From Thermoplasmatales archaeon SW_10_69_26 (GTDB lineage Archaea > Thermoplasmatota > SW-10-69-26), in NCBI GenBank assembly GCA_003009755.1, contig PXUB01000037.1, positions 64,972-80,915 on the forward strand: a DNA stretch of 15,944 bases, read 5' to 3'. The position numbers and the translations under genes were made by a program. Below, piece by piece: positions 1,115 through 15,840 of the stretch; positions within the stretch are counted from its first letter, which is position 1; each line of letters opens with the position of its first letter. The notes beneath the pieces are model-generated. The model was given only the letters and a program-made list of their open reading frames with translations. It was not told the origin of the DNA and did not search any database.

Positions 1115-1472
1115 ACTGCCGGACGTGTTTTGCTTACGCTCTCGCGCCGGTCTCGGGAGACCGGCCACGGTCTTCCGGGAGTACGGGCGCCAAGCCCGTG
1201 CGAATGAGCGAGGCAAAATCGCGGAGCCCGAGGAAGGAAACCCCCTGTGGGTTGTCGACGGAGGGCGACAACAAGATTGCCCGCCTCAGACCGGCGCCTG
1301 CACGCGAGGCCGGCCTCAGGCGGCGATGATTCGATCTTTGCAAGTTGTGAGGTTTCCAAGCGTTGTCGCCGTCGACATCGACGTAGCCTCCGGCTACTCC
1401 GTCGTCTCGGCTCCGCGCTTTCACCGCCTGAGGCCGAGCGAGAGCTTAACCCAAGCACAGCCGGCAGTCTAG
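1111..1472. mobile_element. Non-autonomous MITE/REPIN-like element (354 bp between two CTAG tetranucleotides)
   Basis: Terminal inverted repeats 1111-1145 and 1438-1472 match at 29/35, and the outer 12 nt are perfect (CTAGACTGCCGG / CCGGCAGTCTAG). CTAG at both ends is compatible with a CTAG or TA target duplication. The interior is packed with hairpins and has no credible ORF. Confidence 0.75.
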
Positions 1473-1572: not shown

Positions 1573-1839
1573 CTATCCGTCGTCTGGCCGGTCGCCGAGC
1601 GCTGGTGAGGCTGGATGCGGGCAGTCCGAGGCGGTCACGTCGCTGACTGGAGTCTCCAGCTCGAGCAAGCCCCTCACGGCCATCGGATCGGCGTGCTCGA
1701 CCGAGTCGATCGTCAAGAGGTTGCAGGCGATCTCCTCGGCGTACGGGCTGGCCGGATCCACGAAGTACAGGTGCATGGCGTGGCCGGTGAGCGTCTTCTC
1801 CGTGACGGCCGCCAGCCTATCGTCGTTCTCGGGGCCCAT
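1573..1839 (-). CDS. Small acidic hypothetical protein, 88 aa
   Basis: ATG 1839 lies 11 nt after the stop of the GmhB-like gene and is preceded by purine-rich GAGAGGGG. The translation MGPENDDRLAAVTEKTLTGHAMHLYFVDPASPYAEEIACNLL... is acidic like the genuine proteins here. No family recognised. Confidence 0.5.
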   Translation of the reverse strand: MGPENDDRLAAVTEKTLTGHAMHLYFVDPASPYAEEIACNLLTIDSVEHADPMAVRGLLELETPVSDVTASDCPHPASPALGDRPDDG

Positions 1840-1850
1840 GGCCCCTCTCG

Positions 1851-2501
1851 TCAGCTCCCCCGTCGGGGAGAGACGGTCTGGCTGCTGGTTTCGGTCCTCG
1901 GGGTCGGCGGCTGCTCGGCCAGGATCCGATCCACGGCCGCCGGCAGATCCTGCGCGTGGTGGTCGGCCTCCGGCGCCGTCTTCCAGCGCTCCCACGGGAA
2001 CTTCGACCCCGTGATCTTGATCGTGTCCGCACCGAAGCGGCGGCCAGCCTCGACGTCGCTGGGCTTGTCGCCGACCATCCAGCTCCCCTCCGATGCCAAG
2101 CCCAGCTCCTCGGCCGCGGACACCAGCATCCCGGGCTCCGGTTTCCCGCAGGCGCACTCGTCGAAGAAGCCGTCCCGGCACGATCGGAACGCGTCGACAC
2201 GACCGCCGACCTCCTCGATGGCGGCCTGGATGTCCTCGTGGATGCGATCGAGGTCCTCGCCGTCGATGATGCCCCAAGCGACGGGGCGCTGGTTCGTGAC
2301 GATGACGATCCGGTAGCCGGCCTCGGTCAAGCGAGCGACGGCCTCGGGCACGCCGGGCAGGATCTCGAGCTGGGACTCGTCGCGCACGAGCGTGATGCTG
2401 CGCCGGTTGATCACGCCATCGCGGTCGAGGAACACAGCCGGGTCTCCCTCGGCCTCCTCGTCCCCAACCGTCGGCTTCTCGGCGTTGGCGTGCACCGCCA
2501 C
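1851..2501 (-). CDS. HAD-superfamily IIIA phosphatase, GmhB (heptose-1,7-bisphosphate phosphatase)/HisB-N-like
   Basis: Motifs AVFLDRDGVIN, IVIVTNQ, CACGKPEPGML and WMVGDKPSDVEAG are present. GTG 2501 is chosen because a BRE/TATA-like box begins 29 nt upstream. ATG 2519 and GTG 2495 are alternative starts. Confidence 0.85.
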   Translation of the reverse strand: MAVHANAEKPTVGDEEAEGDPAVFLDRDGVINRRSITLVRDESQLEILPGVPEAVARLTEAGYRIVIVTNQRPVAWGIIDGEDLDRIHEDIQAAIEEVGGRVDAFRSCRDGFFDECACGKPEPGMLVSAAEELGLASEGSWMVGDKPSDVEAGRRFGADTIKITGSKFPWERWKTAPEADHHAQDLPAAVDRILAEQPPTPRTETSSQTVSPRRGS

Positions 2502-6321: not shown

Positions 6322-6336
6322 CTTTTTAAGCGTTGC
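6322..6336 (-). promoter_or_regulatory. BRE/TATA promoter of maeB (likely leaderless transcript)
   Basis: The minus strand reads GCAACG-CTTAAAAAG. The first T is 28 nt upstream of ATG 6301. Confidence 0.65.
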
Positions 6337-6431
6337 CAACCGCGCCCGGCCCACCCGCGTCCGGGAACGGTGCGGTCGCTGGCCCCCGCTTGCGGACAGC
6401 CTTCACGGGCACCAGCGACCACCGGGATCCG

Positions 6432-7523
6432 ATGCCTCACCGCGGCCTCGCCCTGTTGCTCGCCCTCGCGCTCGCCACCGTGACCGCCACGCCCGCCGCC
6501 GTGGGCGGCTCCTCGGCCCGCTCGAGCCCCGACGTGGTCGAGATCGACGCCGCCACCGGCGAGCTCGTCTCCGCGCCCGCCGACCCCGGCACGAACGTCA
6601 CCGTCCGCGTGCACGGGGTCCCGGCCGGCGAGACCGGGTTCACTCTCCACGGACCGCCGGGAGAGCTGTTCGTGAACCAGACCTCCCGCGCCGACGGCGT
6701 CGTCGAGTTCTGGGACGTCCCCGCCGGGCCCGGCACCTACGAGATCGAGACCACCCCAAGCGCGGACGCTGGGACGCTCTCCGTCGAGATCGTGTCCGAC
6801 GACTGCGCCGTGCCCACCGGCTGCCGCACGACGAGCGACTGGTGGTGCAGCTCCACCCGCTCGGAGAAGCTGGCCGACGAGATCCACTGGACGCCGCTGC
6901 TCGGTGTCAACAGCCCCTCGGATGGGCAAGCCGTCGCCTCCAGCGAGTGGTCGCGCACCGAGGCCCTGTTCGTCTCGCCCGGCTCGTGGGAGAGCCGCAC
7001 CCAGCACAGCGAACGCATCGAGGCCACCGACGGGGAAAGCTGGGGCTTCTACCGGCTCGCCAAATGGGGCATCTACGAGCGCACGACCGACCCCTGCTTC
7101 GGTGAACCCGAGACCACGCGCGAAGCCAAGGTGATCGACTGGACGCCTCGCGGTTACGTCTCGGAGACCTCGATCGAGCTGACCCACAACGACCACTACA
7201 CCGACGCCGACAACCTCATCAAGACGGGGAACAACGACGAGAGCACACTCGTCCACGACCTCCGGTACAAGATCAAGGACCGCGAACGCGAAGGCCCCAA
7301 CGAACGTGCCATCAAGAACGAGGAGATCACCGCGATCGCGGGCGGCGTCTCCGCCGGCACCCATTACGTCAGCTTCGACATCATCCGCTTCGAGCTCGCC
7401 CACGAGGAGACGATCTCGTACACGTACACCTTCCCGCAGAAGGGCAGCTGGGCCATCGACGAGCTGCGGGGCAGCGACGGCTGGGCCTTCTGCCGCCCGG
7501 CGGAGGCCGACTGCTCGGGGTGA
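6432..7523 (+). CDS. Secreted hypothetical protein, 363 aa, beta-rich, 6 Cys
   Basis: ATG 6432 gives a Sec-type signal peptide, MPHRGLALLLALALATVTATPAAVG. The mature part is acidic. A small beta-sandwich-like segment (ADGVVEFWDVPAGPGTYEIET) precedes a Trp/Cys-containing domain. Confidence 0.8.
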   Translation: MPHRGLALLLALALATVTATPAAVGGSSARSSPDVVEIDAATGELVSAPADPGTNVTVRVHGVPAGETGFTLHGPPGELFVNQTSRADGVVEFWDVPAGPGTYEIETTPSADAGTLSVEIVSDDCAVPTGCRTTSDWWCSSTRSEKLADEIHWTPLLGVNSPSDGQAVASSEWSRTEALFVSPGSWESRTQHSERIEATDGESWGFYRLAKWGIYERTTDPCFGEPETTREAKVIDWTPRGYVSETSIELTHNDHYTDADNLIKTGNNDESTLVHDLRYKIKDREREGPNERAIKNEEITAIAGGVSAGTHYVSFDIIRFELAHEETISYTYTFPQKGSWAIDELRGSDGWAFCRPAEADCSG

Positions 7524-7527
7524 TCGC

Positions 7528-8199
7528 ATGCTCGGACACGACCACGCCCTCCTCCCCGGCGGGTTAGGGCTGGGCCTCGTCGTCGCCAGCCTGGCGGGTC
7601 TGTTCACCTACGCCGGGTTCGGCCTCGCCGCCGACCCGACGACCGTCACGGCAGACGCCGGCGACCGGCACGAGCTCACGTTCGCCGACGGTGAACCCGA
7701 CCGCCAGCACCGCTCCTGGTCGACCCAGCTCGTCTTGGATGGCCCGCCCGAGGCCTACGAGATCTCCGTCGGCGTCCCCTACACCGTCGACCCCCAGGAA
7801 CCCGACGTCCTCGGCGCCGACGTGTGGACGAACGCGACCGTGAACGGCGAGACCGCCACCCAGCATCGCTACCGCCCCTCCACCACGACGGTCGCCCTCG
7901 TCGTGCCCGGTCCCCACCTCGATACCCCGTCCTTCCAGGAGGGGACCAACACGATCGCCGTCGAAACCACCGCCCACCGCCCGCCCGAGGCGGAGGGCTC
8001 GGCCCAGGTCACGATCGGACCCCTGCAGGCCGAAGCCCAGCCCCAGGACACCGACGGCGACGGCATCGTCGACACCGACCAACCGGTCCACGGTCTCCAC
8101 ACGGCGTGGGTGGCCGCCGCCGGGGCCCTCCTCGCGGGCGTCCCGGCCACGTACCTCCGTCGCCGAGCCCTCGACGACGGTGAGGAGGGACGAGGGTGA
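7528..8199 (+). CDS. Membrane-anchored surface protein with DxDxDG motif and C-terminal TM+RRR tail, 223 aa
   Basis: An SD-like GGGGTGA precedes ATG 7528. The protein has an N-terminal hydrophobic helix, QDTDGDGIVDTD, and C-terminal VHGLHTAWVAAAGALLAGVPATYLRRR. Confidence 0.8.
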   Translation: MLGHDHALLPGGLGLGLVVASLAGLFTYAGFGLAADPTTVTADAGDRHELTFADGEPDRQHRSWSTQLVLDGPPEAYEISVGVPYTVDPQEPDVLGADVWTNATVNGETATQHRYRPSTTTVALVVPGPHLDTPSFQEGTNTIAVETTAHRPPEAEGSAQVTIGPLQAEAQPQDTDGDGIVDTDQPVHGLHTAWVAAAGALLAGVPATYLRRRALDDGEEGRG

Positions 8200-10406
8200 A
8201 CCGGATCCTGGCGATCGCCGTGTTGGCCACGGTCGCCATCGCCGGCCTCGCCGCCGGGCACCACCTCAGCGTCGGCGCCTCCCAGGGGAGGGTCGAGGTC
8301 TCCGAGCGGCCCGGCGATCCCTCCGTCGACCGCGAGCTGTACCACCGCGGCGTCGAGACCGACTGCCCGACGCCCCGGTTGGACCCGGCGGACCCCTCTC
8401 GCGGGAAGCAGGACCCGATGTGCGGCCGGCTGGTCTACCACGAGGGCACCGAATTCGAGCGCTGGGCGCCCGCCGACCAGGTGGTCTACGATCCGGTGGC
8501 CATCTTCGACGTCCAGCGCACCCACACCCTCGGCGTGGCCGCCCTGACGACGTGCCAGCCGTGGTGCCTGCAGCCATCCGTGACGTACCCGCTCTACGAC
8601 AGCGTGAACAATCTCGCCTACCGCGCCGGGCTCGCCCACAGCGACCGAGCCGACGAGGCCGATCACGGAACCCAGTCCTACGGAGGGGGCCTCCAACGGA
8701 CCCACGCCCTGACGATCGCCCGAGAGGATGCCGGCCTTGGCGAGGGCAACGGCTGGACGATCGTCTCCCACGACCGCAGCTTCGTCGGGATCCTCGAGGA
8801 CGGGGAGGGCTACCCAGTCGGGCCCCACAGACTGCGAGAGATCGCCGCCGACCGCAACCTCCCCGCCGCCGCCGAGCCGACCGTGTGCGGGTTCTCGCCC
8901 GACATCGACCTCGGTCACGACGGCTGCGAGCTCCCGTTCCGATGGGAAACCGAGGACACCAACCGGGGCGACAACCCCTGTCGCAGCCCCACCTACGTCT
9001 GTGCCCCCGGCGAGGGCAGCTGGCAGGCTCGCCTAACCTGCGCGCCCGCCCACGGCTGCGGCTCCCAGGCAAGCACGCTCACGGACTCGGACCGTCTCGA
9101 GAAGGACCAGGCCCACGACCTGGATCCTCGTCCCCAGGGGACCCGCCCGGTCGTCTGGCACTTCGTCGCCGCGCCCTCCGTCAGCGAGTGCGGCGGCCAC
9201 CGCGAACCCGGGTTCGATCCCTCCCCCGACGCCGCCAGCCGGGGGTTCCTCGGCCACGACCTCGACGTCTACACGACGCTCGACACCCGGCACGATGTCC
9301 ACGTCACCCCGCTCGTCCGCCACGAGACCGCCGCCGGCACCGCCAAGGTGGCCGATCTCGTTCACGAGGCTACGGATCCGGTCTGGCGGGAACCGGCGCC
9401 CGAGCCCAACCAGCCCGGCGAGCTCGGCGGCCTGCGGGACACCTCGGCCACCCACCCGATCGACCGCGACTGGCGGCACTGCCTGACCGTCGCCTCGCCG
9501 GAGACCCGCGACACTTTGGACCCCTGGGCCGACGTCGTCGACGCTCGCCTGGTGCCCGCCGACACCAGTGCCCACGTCGAGGGCACGCTGGAGGCGCCGG
9601 CCGGCACCGAGGGCCAGCGAGCCCGCACGGGCACCTACGTCCCCACCGGTCGCACCGTGTACGCGGCGGACACCGACGACGACGGCGACCGCGAGACCGC
9701 CGCCTGGGGGGACTGGTGGACGACCGACGGTGTGTACCCCGTCCTGTGGGACATGCACGTCACCCCCGAGGGCTGGCCCGACCCGGAGGCCGGCTGCCGC
9801 CTCCACGACAGCGGCATCATCCGTGAAGGCCAAACCCTGACCGAGGCCATGCTCGCCGCCGGCTACGAGGCCGGCACCGGGCTCGTCCAGGCGCTGGCGC
9901 TCGACGAACCCGTCGTCTGGACCCACCGACCCACCGGGACCGAGGTCCCCTTCCCCAGGGGCGGCGTGTTCGTGCTGGGCAGCCAAGCCGTCCACGAGCT
10001 CGGGCTCGGCCCATCCCCCCAGGCACCCATGGCCGAGCACGTCCGCACGGTCACGAACGCCGCCGCCGAGGCCGCCGGGCTCGCGGACCGGGACCCGATC
10101 GTGCTTCGCCAGGCCCTCGACGTCGACCCCGACGGCCAGACCGGATCCGACTGGCAACCCCAATGCGGGGAGCCCGCCGGCGGGTTCACCAGCCGATGGT
10201 CGCTCACCCGCGTCTGCACCGGCCAGGGCGAGTGCACGACGTCCACGGCCGTCACACGGCTCCTGTTCGAGATCTCGGACGGCGAGGACGCGTTCTTCGA
10301 CCACGCGACGTGGGCCCGGCCCTTCCCCGACGACCACACCGACGCCTTCCCCCGCGGCCAGCACAACTGGACCGACGTGGACCGGCTGGGCCCCGTGTCA
10401 CGGTGA
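8196..10406 (+). CDS. Large secreted Cys-rich hypothetical protein, 736 aa
   Basis: The GTG start overlaps the upstream TGA (GTGA) and follows a GGAGG SD. It has the signal peptide MNRILAIAVLATVAIAGLAAG, 16 Cys, a DTDDDGD motif and acidic composition. Confidence 0.82.
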   Translation: MNRILAIAVLATVAIAGLAAGHHLSVGASQGRVEVSERPGDPSVDRELYHRGVETDCPTPRLDPADPSRGKQDPMCGRLVYHEGTEFERWAPADQVVYDPVAIFDVQRTHTLGVAALTTCQPWCLQPSVTYPLYDSVNNLAYRAGLAHSDRADEADHGTQSYGGGLQRTHALTIAREDAGLGEGNGWTIVSHDRSFVGILEDGEGYPVGPHRLREIAADRNLPAAAEPTVCGFSPDIDLGHDGCELPFRWETEDTNRGDNPCRSPTYVCAPGEGSWQARLTCAPAHGCGSQASTLTDSDRLEKDQAHDLDPRPQGTRPVVWHFVAAPSVSECGGHREPGFDPSPDAASRGFLGHDLDVYTTLDTRHDVHVTPLVRHETAAGTAKVADLVHEATDPVWREPAPEPNQPGELGGLRDTSATHPIDRDWRHCLTVASPETRDTLDPWADVVDARLVPADTSAHVEGTLEAPAGTEGQRARTGTYVPTGRTVYAADTDDDGDRETAAWGDWWTTDGVYPVLWDMHVTPEGWPDPEAGCRLHDSGIIREGQTLTEAMLAAGYEAGTGLVQALALDEPVVWTHRPTGTEVPFPRGGVFVLGSQAVHELGLGPSPQAPMAEHVRTVTNAAAEAAGLADRDPIVLRQALDVDPDGQTGSDWQPQCGEPAGGFTSRWSLTRVCTGQGECTTSTAVTRLLFEISDGEDAFFDHATWARPFPDDHTDAFPRGQHNWTDVDRLGPVSR

Positions 10407-11746: not shown

Positions 11747-11995
11747 TCAGATCGGGAAGAACTCGCAGTACACGTAGTCGACGAACTCATCGACCGTGTC
11801 GGAGGCGTACCGCTCGTGGTCCTGGTGGTCGAGGAGCGCCAGCGTGTGGCCGGCCTGATCCTGGGCGGACTCGAGCTCGCAGTCGGGGTTCGTGTCCGGC
11901 TTCGGCGGGAAGCCGGCGGCTGCCGCCGGCGCCACGGTCAATCCCAGCAGGCTCAACGCGATCGCGATCGCCGCGGTTCGTCGCAGGTCCGTCAT
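11747..11995 (-). CDS. Small secreted protein, 82 aa (signal peptide plus ~55 aa acidic mature peptide with 2 Cys)
   Basis: MTDLRRTAAIAIALSLLGLTVAPAAAA is a clear signal peptide with an AxA cleavage site. The ORF fills an otherwise empty intergenic gap and has a TTGAAG box upstream (12033-12028). Confidence 0.75.
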   Translation of the reverse strand: MTDLRRTAAIAIALSLLGLTVAPAAAAGFPPKPDTNPDCELESAQDQAGHTLALLDHQDHERYASDTVDEFVDYVYCEFFPI

Positions 11996-12115
11996 GGTTG
12001 CCCACGGCGCGCAGCCTCGCTTCGGGACTTCAATGCTGTCGCGGTCCCGGTCGAACGGCGGGCGCCGGCTCAGGCGGGTCCTCGCCGCCGTCCACGGCGC
12101 AGACGTTGGGTCGGC

Positions 12116-12130
12116 CGAACCAGTTTTAAG
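12116..12130 (+). promoter_or_regulatory. BRE/TATA promoter of the etf/fix operon
   Basis: CGAACCAG-TTTTAAG, with the TATA part starting 35 nt upstream of ATG 12159. Confidence 0.65.
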
Positions 12131-12158
12131 GATGACGTTTCATCGGCCGCCGACGCCC

Positions 12159-12998
12159 ATGGATATCGCCGTCCTCGTCAAGGGTGTTCCCGACTTCTCG
12201 GAGGGCAGCGTGGAGTTCCACGAGGATAACACGCTGGACCGGGGGTCCACCGAGACCGTGTTGAACCCCAACGACCACTTCGCGCTCGAATGCGCGCGGG
12301 AGCTCAAGGTCAAGCACGGGGCCACCATCCACGTCGTGACGATGGGGCCCCCGAACTACAAGGAGGTCCTGCACGAGGCCGCCGAGTTCGCCGGCGACGA
12401 GTTTTACCTCCTCAGCGACGGCAAGTTCGCCGGCGCCGACACGTGGGCCACCGCGCACGCCCTCCACGCGGGCCTCAACGAGATCGGCGACCTCGATCTC
12501 GTGATCGCTGGCTTCAAGACGGCCGACGGCGAGACCGGGCACACCGGTCCCCAGACCTCGCTTATGCTCGACTGGCCGATCATCACGCACTGCGTCGAGG
12601 TCAACGTCCAGCCCGAGGCCGAGACGATCGGCGCTCGCCGGCAACTGTACGGCGAAGCCGAGCACTGCGAGGGCCCTTTGCCCTGCTTCATCGTGATGGA
12701 CCCCGACTACGAACCGTCCTTCCACACGGCCAGCCAGCGGCTGCGCCTCAAGGACATCCTCGCCGAGCAAGCGGAGATCGTCGAGGCCGAGGACTTCGGC
12801 GAGCACGTCCACACGTGGGGCCTGGAGGACCTGCCCGTCGACGAGCACGTCGTCGGGCTCCGCGGCTCGCCGACGATCGTCTCCGGCGTGGACCCGATCC
12901 CGCAACCGCCGGCCGAGCGCGATGCCGAGGAGTTCGGCACCAGCGAGGAAGAGCTGCGTGAGGTCGCCAAGCTCCTCGTCGAGAAGGGGGGTCTTTGA
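12159..12998 (+). CDS. etfB: Electron transfer flavoprotein beta subunit (FixA family), 279 aa
   Basis: Motifs MDIAVLVKGVPD, LNPND, VVTMGPP, LLSDGKFAGADTWAT, DGETGHTGPQ and VGLRGSPTIV. Confidence 0.93.
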   Translation: MDIAVLVKGVPDFSEGSVEFHEDNTLDRGSTETVLNPNDHFALECARELKVKHGATIHVVTMGPPNYKEVLHEAAEFAGDEFYLLSDGKFAGADTWATAHALHAGLNEIGDLDLVIAGFKTADGETGHTGPQTSLMLDWPIITHCVEVNVQPEAETIGARRQLYGEAEHCEGPLPCFIVMDPDYEPSFHTASQRLRLKDILAEQAEIVEAEDFGEHVHTWGLEDLPVDEHVVGLRGSPTIVSGVDPIPQPPAERDAEEFGTSEEELREVAKLLVEKGGL

Positions 12999-14170
12999 TG
13001 GATTACGACGTGTACGAGGCCACCCAAGACGCCTCCGTCGGGGACATGTGGGTGTTCTGCGAGTCGCGCGACGGTCAGCTTCGCGACGTCTCGCTCGAGA
13101 TGCTGGGCAAGGCCCGCCGGATGATGGACGACTACAACGAGGAGTACGACGCCGACGAGAACGTCGTCGCCCTCGTGCTCGGCCAGGACGCCCGCGGCCT
13201 CGCCGGCGAATGCGTCCAGCACGGCGCCGACGTCGTCTACGTCGCCGAGGACGAACAGCTCGTTCCCTTCCGCCTGCTCCCCTACACCACGGTCGTCGCC
13301 AACGCGGCCCTGATGCGCGACGAGTACAAGGACTACGACAAGCCGCGCTACTTCCTGTTCCCCGCCACGCACAACGGCCGGGACCTGTCCGCGACCGTCG
13401 CCGGCAAGCTCGACACCGGGCTGGCCAGCGACTGCGACGACCTCTACATCGAGGACGCCGAGATCAAGCACCCGTTCAAGACCGAAGGCGAGGAGACGGT
13501 CTTCGAGCGGACCCTCCACATGGTCCGCCCCGACTTCAGCGGGTTCGAGCACTCCACGATCCTGTGCCTGGACAACCCGCACCGCGATTTCCACCCGCAG
13601 TCGGCCTCGGTGATCCCGGGCAGCTTCCCGGTGCCCGAACCCGACCGCGACCGCCTGCAAGAGGGACGCATCCTCCAGCTACCGGTCAAGTTCCGCGAGG
13701 GTGACCTCGACGTGACGGTCACCGAACGCGAGCACCTCGACGACGGCGTCGACCTCACCGACGACGAACGCGTCGTCGCCGTCGGCCGCGGCATCGGGGA
13801 GGACCCCACCGAGGGCCTCGAGCTCGGCCTCGAGCTCTCCGACGCCCTCGGCAGCGGGTTCGGCCTCTCCCGCGGCGTCATCACCGCCAGCTACAACGTC
13901 GACGGCAACGTCGAAAGCTACGTGGCCGAGGAGCGCCAGATCGGCGAGACCGGGCAGATCGTCGAGCCCGACGTCTACATTGCCGCCGGCATCAGCGGCG
14001 CCGTCCAACACAAGACCGGCATGGACGAGTCCGAGTTCATCTGTTCGATCAACACGGACCCCGAGGCGCCGATCAAGGACTTCTCCAACGTGTACATCCA
14101 CGGGGACCTGTTCGAGGTCGTTCCGCGGCTCATCGACGAGATCGAACGCATCCGGGAGGGAGACGAGTGA
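12998..14170 (+). CDS. etfA: Electron transfer flavoprotein alpha subunit (FixB family), 390 aa
   Basis: TGATG coupling to etfB. Motifs ATHNGRDLSA, TGLASDC, VVAVGRGI, RQIGETGQIVEPDVYIAAGISGAVQHKTGM and INTDPEAPI. Confidence 0.93.
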   Translation: MDYDVYEATQDASVGDMWVFCESRDGQLRDVSLEMLGKARRMMDDYNEEYDADENVVALVLGQDARGLAGECVQHGADVVYVAEDEQLVPFRLLPYTTVVANAALMRDEYKDYDKPRYFLFPATHNGRDLSATVAGKLDTGLASDCDDLYIEDAEIKHPFKTEGEETVFERTLHMVRPDFSGFEHSTILCLDNPHRDFHPQSASVIPGSFPVPEPDRDRLQEGRILQLPVKFREGDLDVTVTEREHLDDGVDLTDDERVVAVGRGIGEDPTEGLELGLELSDALGSGFGLSRGVITASYNVDGNVESYVAEERQIGETGQIVEPDVYIAAGISGAVQHKTGMDESEFICSINTDPEAPIKDFSNVYIHGDLFEVVPRLIDEIERIREGDE

Positions 14171-15840
14171 CCGAGCGCTACGAGGCCGTGGTCGTCGGAG
14201 CCGGACCCTCCGGCCTGGCGACCGCTCTGGAACTGGCACGCCAAGACGTGGAGACGCTCGTCCTCGAACGGGGCAAGTTCCCCGGCTCGAAGAACGCCAC
14301 CGGCGGCATCATCTACGGGCAGACGAACACCGAGCACAACCTCGACGACGTCGTGCCCGACCTCCACGAGAACGCGCCGCTGGAACGCCCGATCGACGGG
14401 TACGAGTTCCACTGCATGGCGAACGAGAAGGTCCAAAGCTTCGACCTGACGGACCTCCACCAACACAACCACAAGTGGAGCTACACCGTGCTGCGCTCCA
14501 GGTTCGACCGCTGGCTCGGCGAGCGCGCCCACGAGGCGTGCCGCGAAGCCGGTGGTGGCCTGCTTTCCGACGTGCGCGTCAACGGCCCCCTCGTCGAGAA
14601 CGGCGAGATCGTCGGCGTCGAGACCGAGGAGCTGGACCCGATCCGCGCCGACATGGTCGTCGCCGCCGACGGTGCCACCAGCGAGATGGTGCGCCAGGCC
14701 GGCCTGCGCGACTGGGAGGAGCCCGAGGACTGGTTCCAGGGCGTCAAGGTCGTGCTCGACGTCCCCGAGGACCTGATCGAGGAGAACTTCGACCTCGACG
14801 ACGAGGGCGAGGCCCACCTGTTCGCCGGCAACATCTTCGAAGGCGTGCGCGGCGGCGGGTTCCTGTACACCAACGACGACACGCTGTCGATCGGCACCGT
14901 GTTCCATCTCGACTCCCTGGCCGAGAACGGCACCGAACCCCACCGCCTGATGGACCGCCTGCTCGAGCATCCGCTGGTCCAGGACTGGGTCGGCCCGGAC
15001 GCCGAGGAGGTCGAGTACTCGGCCAAGCTCATCCCCGACGGCAAGAAGATGCTCGTCGACCAGCCCTACCGCGGCCGGATGGTCGCGGTCGGCGACGCCG
15101 CCGGGCAGCTGCAAGCCCAGGGCCCGATCATCAAGGGCATGAACCTCGGCATCTCCGCCGGCATCCTCGCCGGGCGCTCCTTCGCCGAGGCCAAGGCCAA
15201 GAACGCTCCCGAGACCGTCGGCGAGCGCTACCACGAGGCCCTGCAGGACAGCTACATCCCGACCTCGGTCCGGCCCTCCAGCTACGAGATCGCTGCCTCC
15301 ACGAGCGAGAACGAGTTCGTGAACGGCCTGTTGGAGAGCTTCGCCCGCTCGTGGTTGGGCCGCAAGCTCATCGGCTCCGGCGTCGGCCAAGCCCGCCTGG
15401 AATCGATGATGAACAGCCCGTCCCTGATGGCCAGCGCGCCCGACATCCGGTTCAGCTACGTCACGCTGCCGGAGGTCATCGCCGAGGAAGCCGGCGAGCC
15501 CGTGCACGGCCCGCCCGAAGGCGTCGTGTTCGAGCCGCGCAGCCTCGACGACCGCATCGGTGATCTCACCTACGACGTCGACGCCGGCAACCCGCACATC
15601 GAGCTGCTGGACGACCGGCCCGAGATCTCCGCGACCGCCGTCCACACGTGCCCGGTCAGCGACCGCGAGATCTCCCGCGGCTGCTACCGGTTCGAAACGC
15701 GCAAGGCCAACGGCGGCAAGGAGCGCTTCGTCGCCCTCGACACCCAACCCTGCGTCGAGTGCGGCACCTGCGCCATCGTCGCCGACACCGACTGGGACCA
15801 TCCCAGAGGTGGGAAGGGCGTCGAATACGAGTACGGGTGA
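14167..15840 (+). CDS. fixC: FixC-like FAD-dependent ETF oxidoreductase fused to a C-terminal FixX-like ferredoxin, 557 aa
   Basis: GTGA coupling to etfA. It has the Rossmann motif VVVGAGPSG, ERGKFPGSKNATGG, AADGA, GGGFLYTN and VGDAAG. The C-terminal CPVS..GCY..CVECGTC..WDHPRGGKGVEYEYG is typical of FixX. Confidence 0.9.
   Translation: MTERYEAVVVGAGPSGLATALELARQDVETLVLERGKFPGSKNATGGIIYGQTNTEHNLDDVVPDLHENAPLERPIDGYEFHCMANEKVQSFDLTDLHQHNHKWSYTVLRSRFDRWLGERAHEACREAGGGLLSDVRVNGPLVENGEIVGVETEELDPIRADMVVAADGATSEMVRQAGLRDWEEPEDWFQGVKVVLDVPEDLIEENFDLDDEGEAHLFAGNIFEGVRGGGFLYTNDDTLSIGTVFHLDSLAENGTEPHRLMDRLLEHPLVQDWVGPDAEEVEYSAKLIPDGKKMLVDQPYRGRMVAVGDAAGQLQAQGPIIKGMNLGISAGILAGRSFAEAKAKNAPETVGERYHEALQDSYIPTSVRPSSYEIAASTSENEFVNGLLESFARSWLGRKLIGSGVGQARLESMMNSPSLMASAPDIRFSYVTLPEVIAEEAGEPVHGPPEGVVFEPRSLDDRIGDLTYDVDAGNPHIELLDDRPEISATAVHTCPVSDREISRGCYRFETRKANGGKERFVALDTQPCVECGTCAIVADTDWDHPRGGKGVEYEYG

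Follow-up and report, generated by a model that had tools for sequence, protein, structure and literature searches.

What kind of genetic entity places two inverted copies of a structured module, with shared words and unlike helices, in the gap between two convergent genes of an archaeal genome? We examined this question in a 15,944-nt stretch of DNA (hereafter the window) from the MAG Thermoplasmatales archaeon SW_10_69_26. In a preliminary description of the window, module A (1217-1278, + strand) and module B (1420-1358, - strand) had been presented as the signature of selection on a single-stranded fold; the module strings, coordinates and pairings given there proved to be exact. We think it probable (about 0.6) that the modules are subterminal segments of both arms of a 362-nt gene-less MITE-type element bounded by terminal inverted repeats (TIRs), lying in a halophilic archaeon at a CTAG that provides a stop codon. 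The features on which the argument draws are these (copies numbered P0001 to P0013 are described further below):

1111-1472, no strand: whole non-autonomous element, 362 nt, with CTAG at each end, an inverted repeat and an exact terminal 12-mer
1111-1145, + strand: left terminal inverted repeat, with the left CTAG at 1111-1114
1438-1472, - strand: right terminal inverted repeat, through which the peptide tails of other copies are read
1151-1205, + strand: variable extra left-arm segment with two hairpins in predicted folds (1154-1163/1168-1177 and 1181-1188/1194-1201)
1217-1278, + strand: module A, with P1 at 1217-1220/1275-1278, P2 at 1226-1229/1263-1266 and the apical hairpin P3 at 1239-1243/1249-1253
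1281-1323, + strand: central hairpin with 15-nt arms, 87% complementary, formed in three of four minimum-energy folds
1311-1326, + strand: 5' strand of a 16-nt stem, 94% complementary to its partner 1421-1436; this stem can enclose module B in a right-hand domain
1327-1357, + strand: less G+C-rich spacer, kept in P0001, P0006 and P0010; P0002, P0004 and P0005 have different sequence here
1358-1420, - strand: module B, read from 1420 to 1358, with the apical hairpin at 1383-1388/1392-1397
1421-1436, + strand: 3' half of the 16-nt stem, pairing with 1311-1326
203-1114, + strand: sulfotransferase-family gene (Pfam Sulfotransfer_3, E 8e-13) whose 3' end overlaps the left end of the element
1573-1860, - strand: small acidic coding-like ORF, separated by 100 nt from the element's right end and ending at the TAG at 1573-1575
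1851-2519, - strand: HAD-IIIA phosphatase gene, upstream of the small ORF

An element with inverted termini between convergent genes

The TIRs span 35-38 nt, with the 38-nt inverted repeat being 82% complementary, and both tips carry the identical 12-mer CTAGACTGCCGG (1111-1122 on the + strand and 1461-1472 on the - strand). The element occupies the gap between the convergent genes, such that its left CTAG includes the TAG (1112-1114) with which the sulfotransferase gene stops, and a run of four T lies 12 nt past that stop codon. Two fully open reading frames span it. Read inward from either end, the order of parts is alike, namely the terminal repeat, a short GCCGG..CT.AGGCGG-like word and the module, with the left arm alone having an extra segment of approximately 50 nt ahead of its module. 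Judged from tblastn frames, P0012 has this segment (1151-1205) and P0013 lacks it. A global alignment of the arms had raised the suspicion of a third, degenerate module in 1141-1216; neither covariance model (see below) detects one, and the segment is better described as a variable insert. The two modules, lying inverted and 79 nt apart within a single TIR-bounded element, had been likened to REPINs in that each strand carries one copy; this arrangement is instead the two-fold symmetry of the element itself, with A and B being arm segments read inward.

The CTAG at the ends is its own reverse complement and fits a TA duplication, a CTAG duplication or a part of the TIR; any target duplication would be hidden due to this palindromic nature. 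In P0013 the left flank reads TAY ahead of ACTGCC and, hence, only the TA is constant at this flank. TA or CTAG ends are typical of IS630- and IS5-type elements. The window has a G+C content of about 69% and its encoded proteins are acidic, which together fit a halophile.

Several observations concern the surroundings of the element. The small ORF at 1573-1860 (- strand) lies in another frame than the HAD-IIIA phosphatase gene and directly downstream of it, has a high GC3 by eye and has no match in Pfam or NCBIfam. The stretch immediately to the right of the element (1473-1572) holds several short palindromes, such as 1491-1503/1506-1518 and GAGATCTC near 1538, which are unrelated to it. Further along, two ORFs on the + strand (6333-7523 and 8196-10406; 396 and 736 aa) have a strong GC3 (0.92) and no family was found for them in Pfam or NCBIfam. 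At 11892-15840 (+ strand) lies an electron-transfer flavoprotein cluster with ETF beta-like and ETF alpha-like proteins, together with an FAD oxidoreductase that has an ETF-QO 4Fe-4S domain at its C-terminus; in the first protein of the cluster, about 110 residues precede the ETF domain.

Pairing within and between the arms

The collinear pattern GCGGAGCC..GGA-15 nt-GTCGA..GACAAC is found in the window in modules A and B only and in 0/200 shuffles, a circular test as the pattern derives from the same data. The observation that the helices differ in sequence and yet stay paired stands: when A is aligned with B, standard pairs occupy 27 of the 28 cells (the remaining one being unpaired), and six of the 14 pairs have changed on both sides with none changed on one side only. 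In slid controls, with the partners moved by 1-3 columns, 27-46% of the cells are paired with 0-1 double changes. The observed pairing and double-change values are reached by 12/500 column shuffles of an alignment that was fitted to a three-helix model built from B and thus leans towards structure (MAFFT had misaligned the helices). The apical hairpin is indeed a flush 15-mer in both modules (1239-1253 and 1383-1397); flush hairpins with at least five Watson-Crick pairs make up 39 of the 15,548 15-mers outside the element. P1 and P2 show one compensated change each between A and B and no uncompensated change, and these two changes are the only evidence that would favor a fully local module fold. 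Every stem consists of Watson-Crick pairs alone, whichever strand is read, and a strand-specific G-U signal is absent; the local alignment of the arm interiors, ungapped words included, is marginal (score 22, matched by 20/500 dinucleotide shuffles).

A covariance model built from B alone retrieves A at 27.0 bits and a coding site at 6524-6578 at 25.6 bits. This site on the - strand, inside a coding region, falls to 16.4 bits with the two-copy model, and we attribute its match to chance, the coding DNA there being G+C-rich with abundant GTCGAC-like words. The two-copy model scores A at 82.6 bits and B at 87.4 bits, the best other score being 20.2 bits. The covariance search that had been proposed as a check of the fold found no further copy in the 15.9-kb window, nor in 99 of the 117 unrelated loci listed by a contig scan (described below).

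Thermodynamically, the modules are unlike each other. Module B alone folds at -30.8 kcal/mol (z -4.3; 0/200 shuffles as stable), with GGA and GTCGA partly paired in its minimum-energy fold, and module A alone at -17.8 kcal/mol (z -0.34), with 72/200 shuffles being as stable. The whole element is far more structured, at -198.5 and -188.5 kcal/mol for the two strands (z -9.1 and -7.4; 0/100 shuffles each). For both full-length strands, we computed minimum-energy folds as well as pair probabilities with RNA and DNA parameters. The shared words, which had been regarded as unpaired, are complementary from arm to arm and pair in this manner in three of the four predicted full-length folds, through 1220-1233 with 1405-1417, 1256-1263 with 1397-1404, and 1265-1272 with 1362-1369; in the folds with such pairing, P1 and P2 have pair probabilities of 0-0.16. 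Of the four folds, that of the + strand RNA alone is Y-shaped with a self-contained right-hand domain, closed by 1311-1326/1421-1436 and holding the entire complement of module B. The P3 hairpins persist at pair probabilities of approximately 0.7-1.0 in seven of eight full-length contexts. The robust picture from these predictions is one of a TIR stem with helices between the arms; at matching sites, two hairpins whose sequence is free would project from it to form a four-way or Y-shaped junction.

Other copies of the element and their hairpins

A search with the translation of the + frame recovered three ‘hypothetical proteins’ of the MAG Thermoplasmatales archaeon SW_10_69_26. A profile search against 1.84 billion representatives gave ten matches at E <= 1e-3, of which six were accepted; P0007-P0009 and P0011 (815-2023 aa, with 5-12 matched stretches) were left out uninspected as repetitive and of low complexity. 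A third protein search gave nine matches at E <= 0.1 among 8,000 scored candidates, and the translation of the - strand open frame (1114-1488) gave none that was significant among 199 candidates. In all, nine ORF products are read from other copies: P0001-P0004 are encoded on four different contigs of this MAG, and P0005, P0006, P0010, P0012 and P0013 come from other ENA/JGI records. These copies are known from translated ORFs alone, so that codon positions 1 and 2 are informative and third positions are unknown.

The closest copy, P0001, is identical to the window in 68 of 75 residues over 1245-1469 (tblastn). With a copy at another locus being about 90% identical, the divergence of the arms is a trait of the family rather than decay of this particular copy. 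Three of the seven amino-acid differences of P0001 from the window are Val-to-Phe, each a G-to-T at the first codon base, and two of these three sit in words flanking hairpins. Frame switches inside the element occur in P0003, P0006, P0012 and P0013 (tblastn), and a reading as a small coding gene was rejected on account of the switches between copies. The internal length differs as well: P0003 is without the element center, the P0012 copy extends over approximately 540 nt, and P0013 is without about 1151-1205. The right end is always read through ..CCGGCAGTCTAG in one of two frames, yielding tails that end in ...SESLTQAQPAV* (P0001-P0003) or ...KPKH.RQS (P0006, P0010 and P0012). P0001 and P0013 are unrelated, apparently real ORFs that run into element copies; the C-terminal tails that the element gives them stop either with the TAG inside the terminal CTAG or with the contig. 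The copies on separate contigs, the shifting frames and the conserved termini together establish a dispersed, non-coding, MITE-type family of variable length. The element is short (below approximately 600 bp), lacks a conserved coding frame, has TIRs and occurs in multiple dispersed copies, amounting to four of the five MITE hallmarks that were addressed.

At the nucleotide level, blastn of the element found no match among plasmids and phages. A scan of genome contigs with TAGACTGCCGGNNGTG (14 specified bases) returned at least 117 loci in unrelated organisms, which are chance matches of a pattern too short to detect copies or a parent IS; blastn of 1050-1899 against these listed loci found nothing past the 16-20-nt seed, and the module pattern occurs in 0/117 of them.

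The peptides of the other copies bear on the hairpins. For a perfect hairpin of 6 bp with a 3-nt loop in register with the frame, codons 5 and 4 must be reverse complements of codons 1 and 2, respectively. The peptides at the site of the module B hairpin are as follows:

VASGY (window, P0001, P0002, P0003): perfect hairpin allowed
VASGC (P0010): one G-T pair needed
VASGP (P0006): mismatch
RPCGP (P0004): perfect hairpin allowed
MPFGH (P0013): perfect hairpin allowed
MPFRA-F (P0005): of the MPFGH type if one extra base is allowed, as read by hand
LRSGR (P0012): compatible only when shifted out of register by one codon (RSGRT)

Three of the six distinct aligned peptides are strictly hairpin-compatible at this position, against a background of 2,594 of 30,218 five-mers (8.6%); finding two new compatible types has a p of approximately 0.007. 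This is suggestive, not decisive, of at least three unrelated stem sequences occupying the B hairpin site with the pairing kept. In module A of P0012, a Thr-to-Pro and a Leu-to-Val change, each at a first codon base and read by hand, turn the P3 pair 1240-1252 from A-T to C-G. A predicted 15-nt hairpin sits at the same place in each arm, its sequence differing between arms and between copies and its pairing being kept. The two wobbles seen by hand in other copies point to opposite strands.

The rest of the module is less constant. In P0001 and P0013 (two of eight other copies), a Val-to-Phe change in module B entails loss of the inner P2 pair, and in P0003 two codons are missing on one side of the module. 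As had been pointed out, the loop words are identical between A and B; across the family they vary: the GTCGA beside the B hairpin becomes YTCGA in all eight alignable other copies (an Asp codon becoming Glu) and that of A becomes TTCGA in P0001; the GACAAC of A, retained in the window and P0003 only, becomes GACGAY in five of six alignable other copies (P0002, P0004, P0005, P0012 and P0013); and the GCGGA of A is altered in both alignable other copies (P0012 and P0013). Of the earlier interpretation, the paired helices of unlike sequence and the apical hairpin, whose shape is kept in further copies, are supported; module A by itself is no more stable than its shuffles.

Origin of the structure and its known parallels

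If the MITE-type reading is right, a transposase supplied in trans would recognize the conserved termini and cut at the TA/CTAG target. The arm hairpins would be kept by selection acting on the element itself, as is suggested by their preservation not at a single locus but throughout copies and sub-families. One strand by itself, either unwound DNA or read-through RNA from either of the convergent genes, would fold through the TIR stem and arm-to-arm pairing, and the two apical hairpins would stand out from this stem, giving a Y-shaped or four-way junction. Hairpins that project in this way would make for a signal of shape rather than of sequence. As a by-product, both 3' UTRs would carry a fold of about -190 kcal/mol, which probably prevents read-through or decay from the 3' end.

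The compensated changes could also have arisen with no structural selection at all, from arms that are decaying inverted copies whose palindromes are renewed by intrastrand template switching (quasi-palindrome correction). During replication, template switching carries a mutation in one half of a hairpin over into the opposite half and thereby mimics covariation. Such a process would account for the stems that are perfect on both strands without strand-specific G-U pairs, the two wobbles on opposite strands, the unexceptional stability of module A and the marginal similarity between the arms. However, it sits poorly with a hairpin that, in both arms and across sub-families with at least three unrelated stems, is bordered without a gap by the same words, and with P1 and P2 each having one compensated and no uncompensated change between A and B; we regard it as unlikely, though it is the most serious of the alternatives. 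A host cis-acting RNA or small RNA gene, such as a 3'-UTR stabilizer or a terminator of the convergent genes that merely resembles a mobile element, is suggested by the placement between these genes with a stop codon inside the left end, by the very stable fold on both strands and by the four-T run 12 nt after the stop codon. Such a gene would hardly be expected to have copies in other records and on four or more further contigs of one MAG, beside unrelated sequence and fused to unrelated ORFs, nor to possess TIRs with identical tips, and it has no Rfam family. Promoter and terminator signals are likewise not above those of shuffles (0 promoters; one terminator-like site versus 0.6 expected), a scan that is bacterial-type and carries little weight for an archaeon; a separate check for tRNA-like structures found none. 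We consider a host RNA of this kind very improbable.

The hairpin shape, kept while its sequence varies, argues against sequence-specific binding of the double strand and would instead be in keeping with a REPIN-like, HUH-mobilized element, in which a Y1/HUH transposase (RAYT- or TIRYT-like) would recognize the arm hairpins as folded single-stranded DNA and the long TIRs would belong to this palindromic system as well. Further, the inverted dimer folds either as separate hairpins or as one long stem, as described for head-to-head REP dimers in the relevant part of PMC3733652, which also reports RAYT-like genes with long flanking TIRs (‘TIRtrons’), some with double palindromes. Against this, the module measures 62 nt as opposed to the 20-40 nt of a REP, the constant GTAG/CGTC tag is absent (GTAG being seen only within one hairpin type), no HUH gene was found in the window, and CTAG/TA ends with a 35-nt TIR are typical of DDE elements. 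We hold HUH mobilization to be quite doubtful. The broader notion of an archaeal non-autonomous family recognized through a folded single-strand shape, an arm-paired four-way junction bound by a structure-specific enzyme (a TIRYT/RAYT-like HUH enzyme or another) rather than a DDE transposase, likewise appears to us a distant prospect. If true, it would extend the REPIN- and attC-style recognition of single strands to halophilic Thermoplasmata-like archaea.

Returning to the MITE-type reading, its closest parallels are well known. MITEs with long stem-loop folds, open frames and gene fusions are described in PMC3184786, and Correia, Nezha and the Haloquadratum MITEs resemble the present element, as far as they are treated in the pertinent parts of PMC3184786 and PMC3119063, in being short, gene-less, TIR-bounded and dispersed, with a strong single-strand fold and ORF fusions. 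The element differs in bearing a long imperfect palindrome in each arm and in having no sequence match in Rfam, plasmids or phages; no parent IS, transposase or empty site was found for it. The Rfam comparison yielded 0 matches at gathering thresholds, in line with the preliminary description, which had assigned the module to no named family; the best sub-threshold hit (E 0.38) is to an unrelated eukaryotic snoRNA model. A precedent for hairpins maintained by compensatory changes is bcr1 of the Bacillus cereus group, a mobile repeat in which, according to the account of it in PMC3184786, such changes keep two stem-loops, comparable to the two arm hairpins with compensatory changes here. As outlined there, bcr1 is bacterial, approximately 155 bp long and flanked by 5-bp direct repeats, and it has no sequence relation to our element, where an independent arm domain appears in one of four predicted full-length folds and the apical hairpins alone are robust.

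REP dimers and REPINs are similar in having two inverted palindromic units with a 20-100-nt spacer that fold separately or as a single stem (covered in part of PMC3733652), and the inverted pair studied here can also fold separately or as one long hairpin. The same source describes, in its treatment of heterodimers, inverted partners with differing stem or loop sequences. The REP units characterized in that portion of PMC3733652 are nonetheless 20-40 nt long, tagged by GTAG/CGTC at one end, without long TIRs and linked to RAYTs; an identity with them was rejected given modules of 62-63 nt with no constant tag and with hairpin sequences that differ between A, B and the other copies. In archaea, the PATEs and SMRs of Haloquadratum walsbyi are comparable as transposase-free repeats with near-terminal palindromes (PATEs) or ITRs of an unknown mobilizer (SMRs), the SMRs being defined, in the passages of PMC3119063 devoted to them, by the absence of a target duplication and of a related transposon. 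The PATEs, which are IS200/IS605-derived, are described in those passages as being without terminal inverted repeats, and the clear TIRs of the present element set it apart from them.

An integron attC site was also considered and rejected: attC sites form arrays of one orientation behind cassettes, and the two modules stand in opposite orientation within a single TIR-bounded element. Moreover, GACAAC/GTTGTC, by eye, presumably does not fit the attC core-site (R''/R') consensus.

In light of bcr1 (PMC3184786) and the REP heterodimers (PMC3733652), in so far as these sources describe them, calling the module an undescribed system was too strong: the hairpin observation is real and has precedents. 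The kind of element is already known, and the family itself appears not to have been described before, no description of it having been found in open-access papers. Explaining this striking motif as the arms of a mobile element guards against its annotation as a new RNA gene or ‘system’. Gene prediction has time and again produced spurious ‘hypothetical proteins’ and C-terminal extensions from this family. The explanation also adds a MITE-type family from an uncultured lineage of halophilic archaea. If the conservation of hairpin shape holds at the nucleotide level, this family would offer a natural test of structure- versus sequence-recognition of small transposons.
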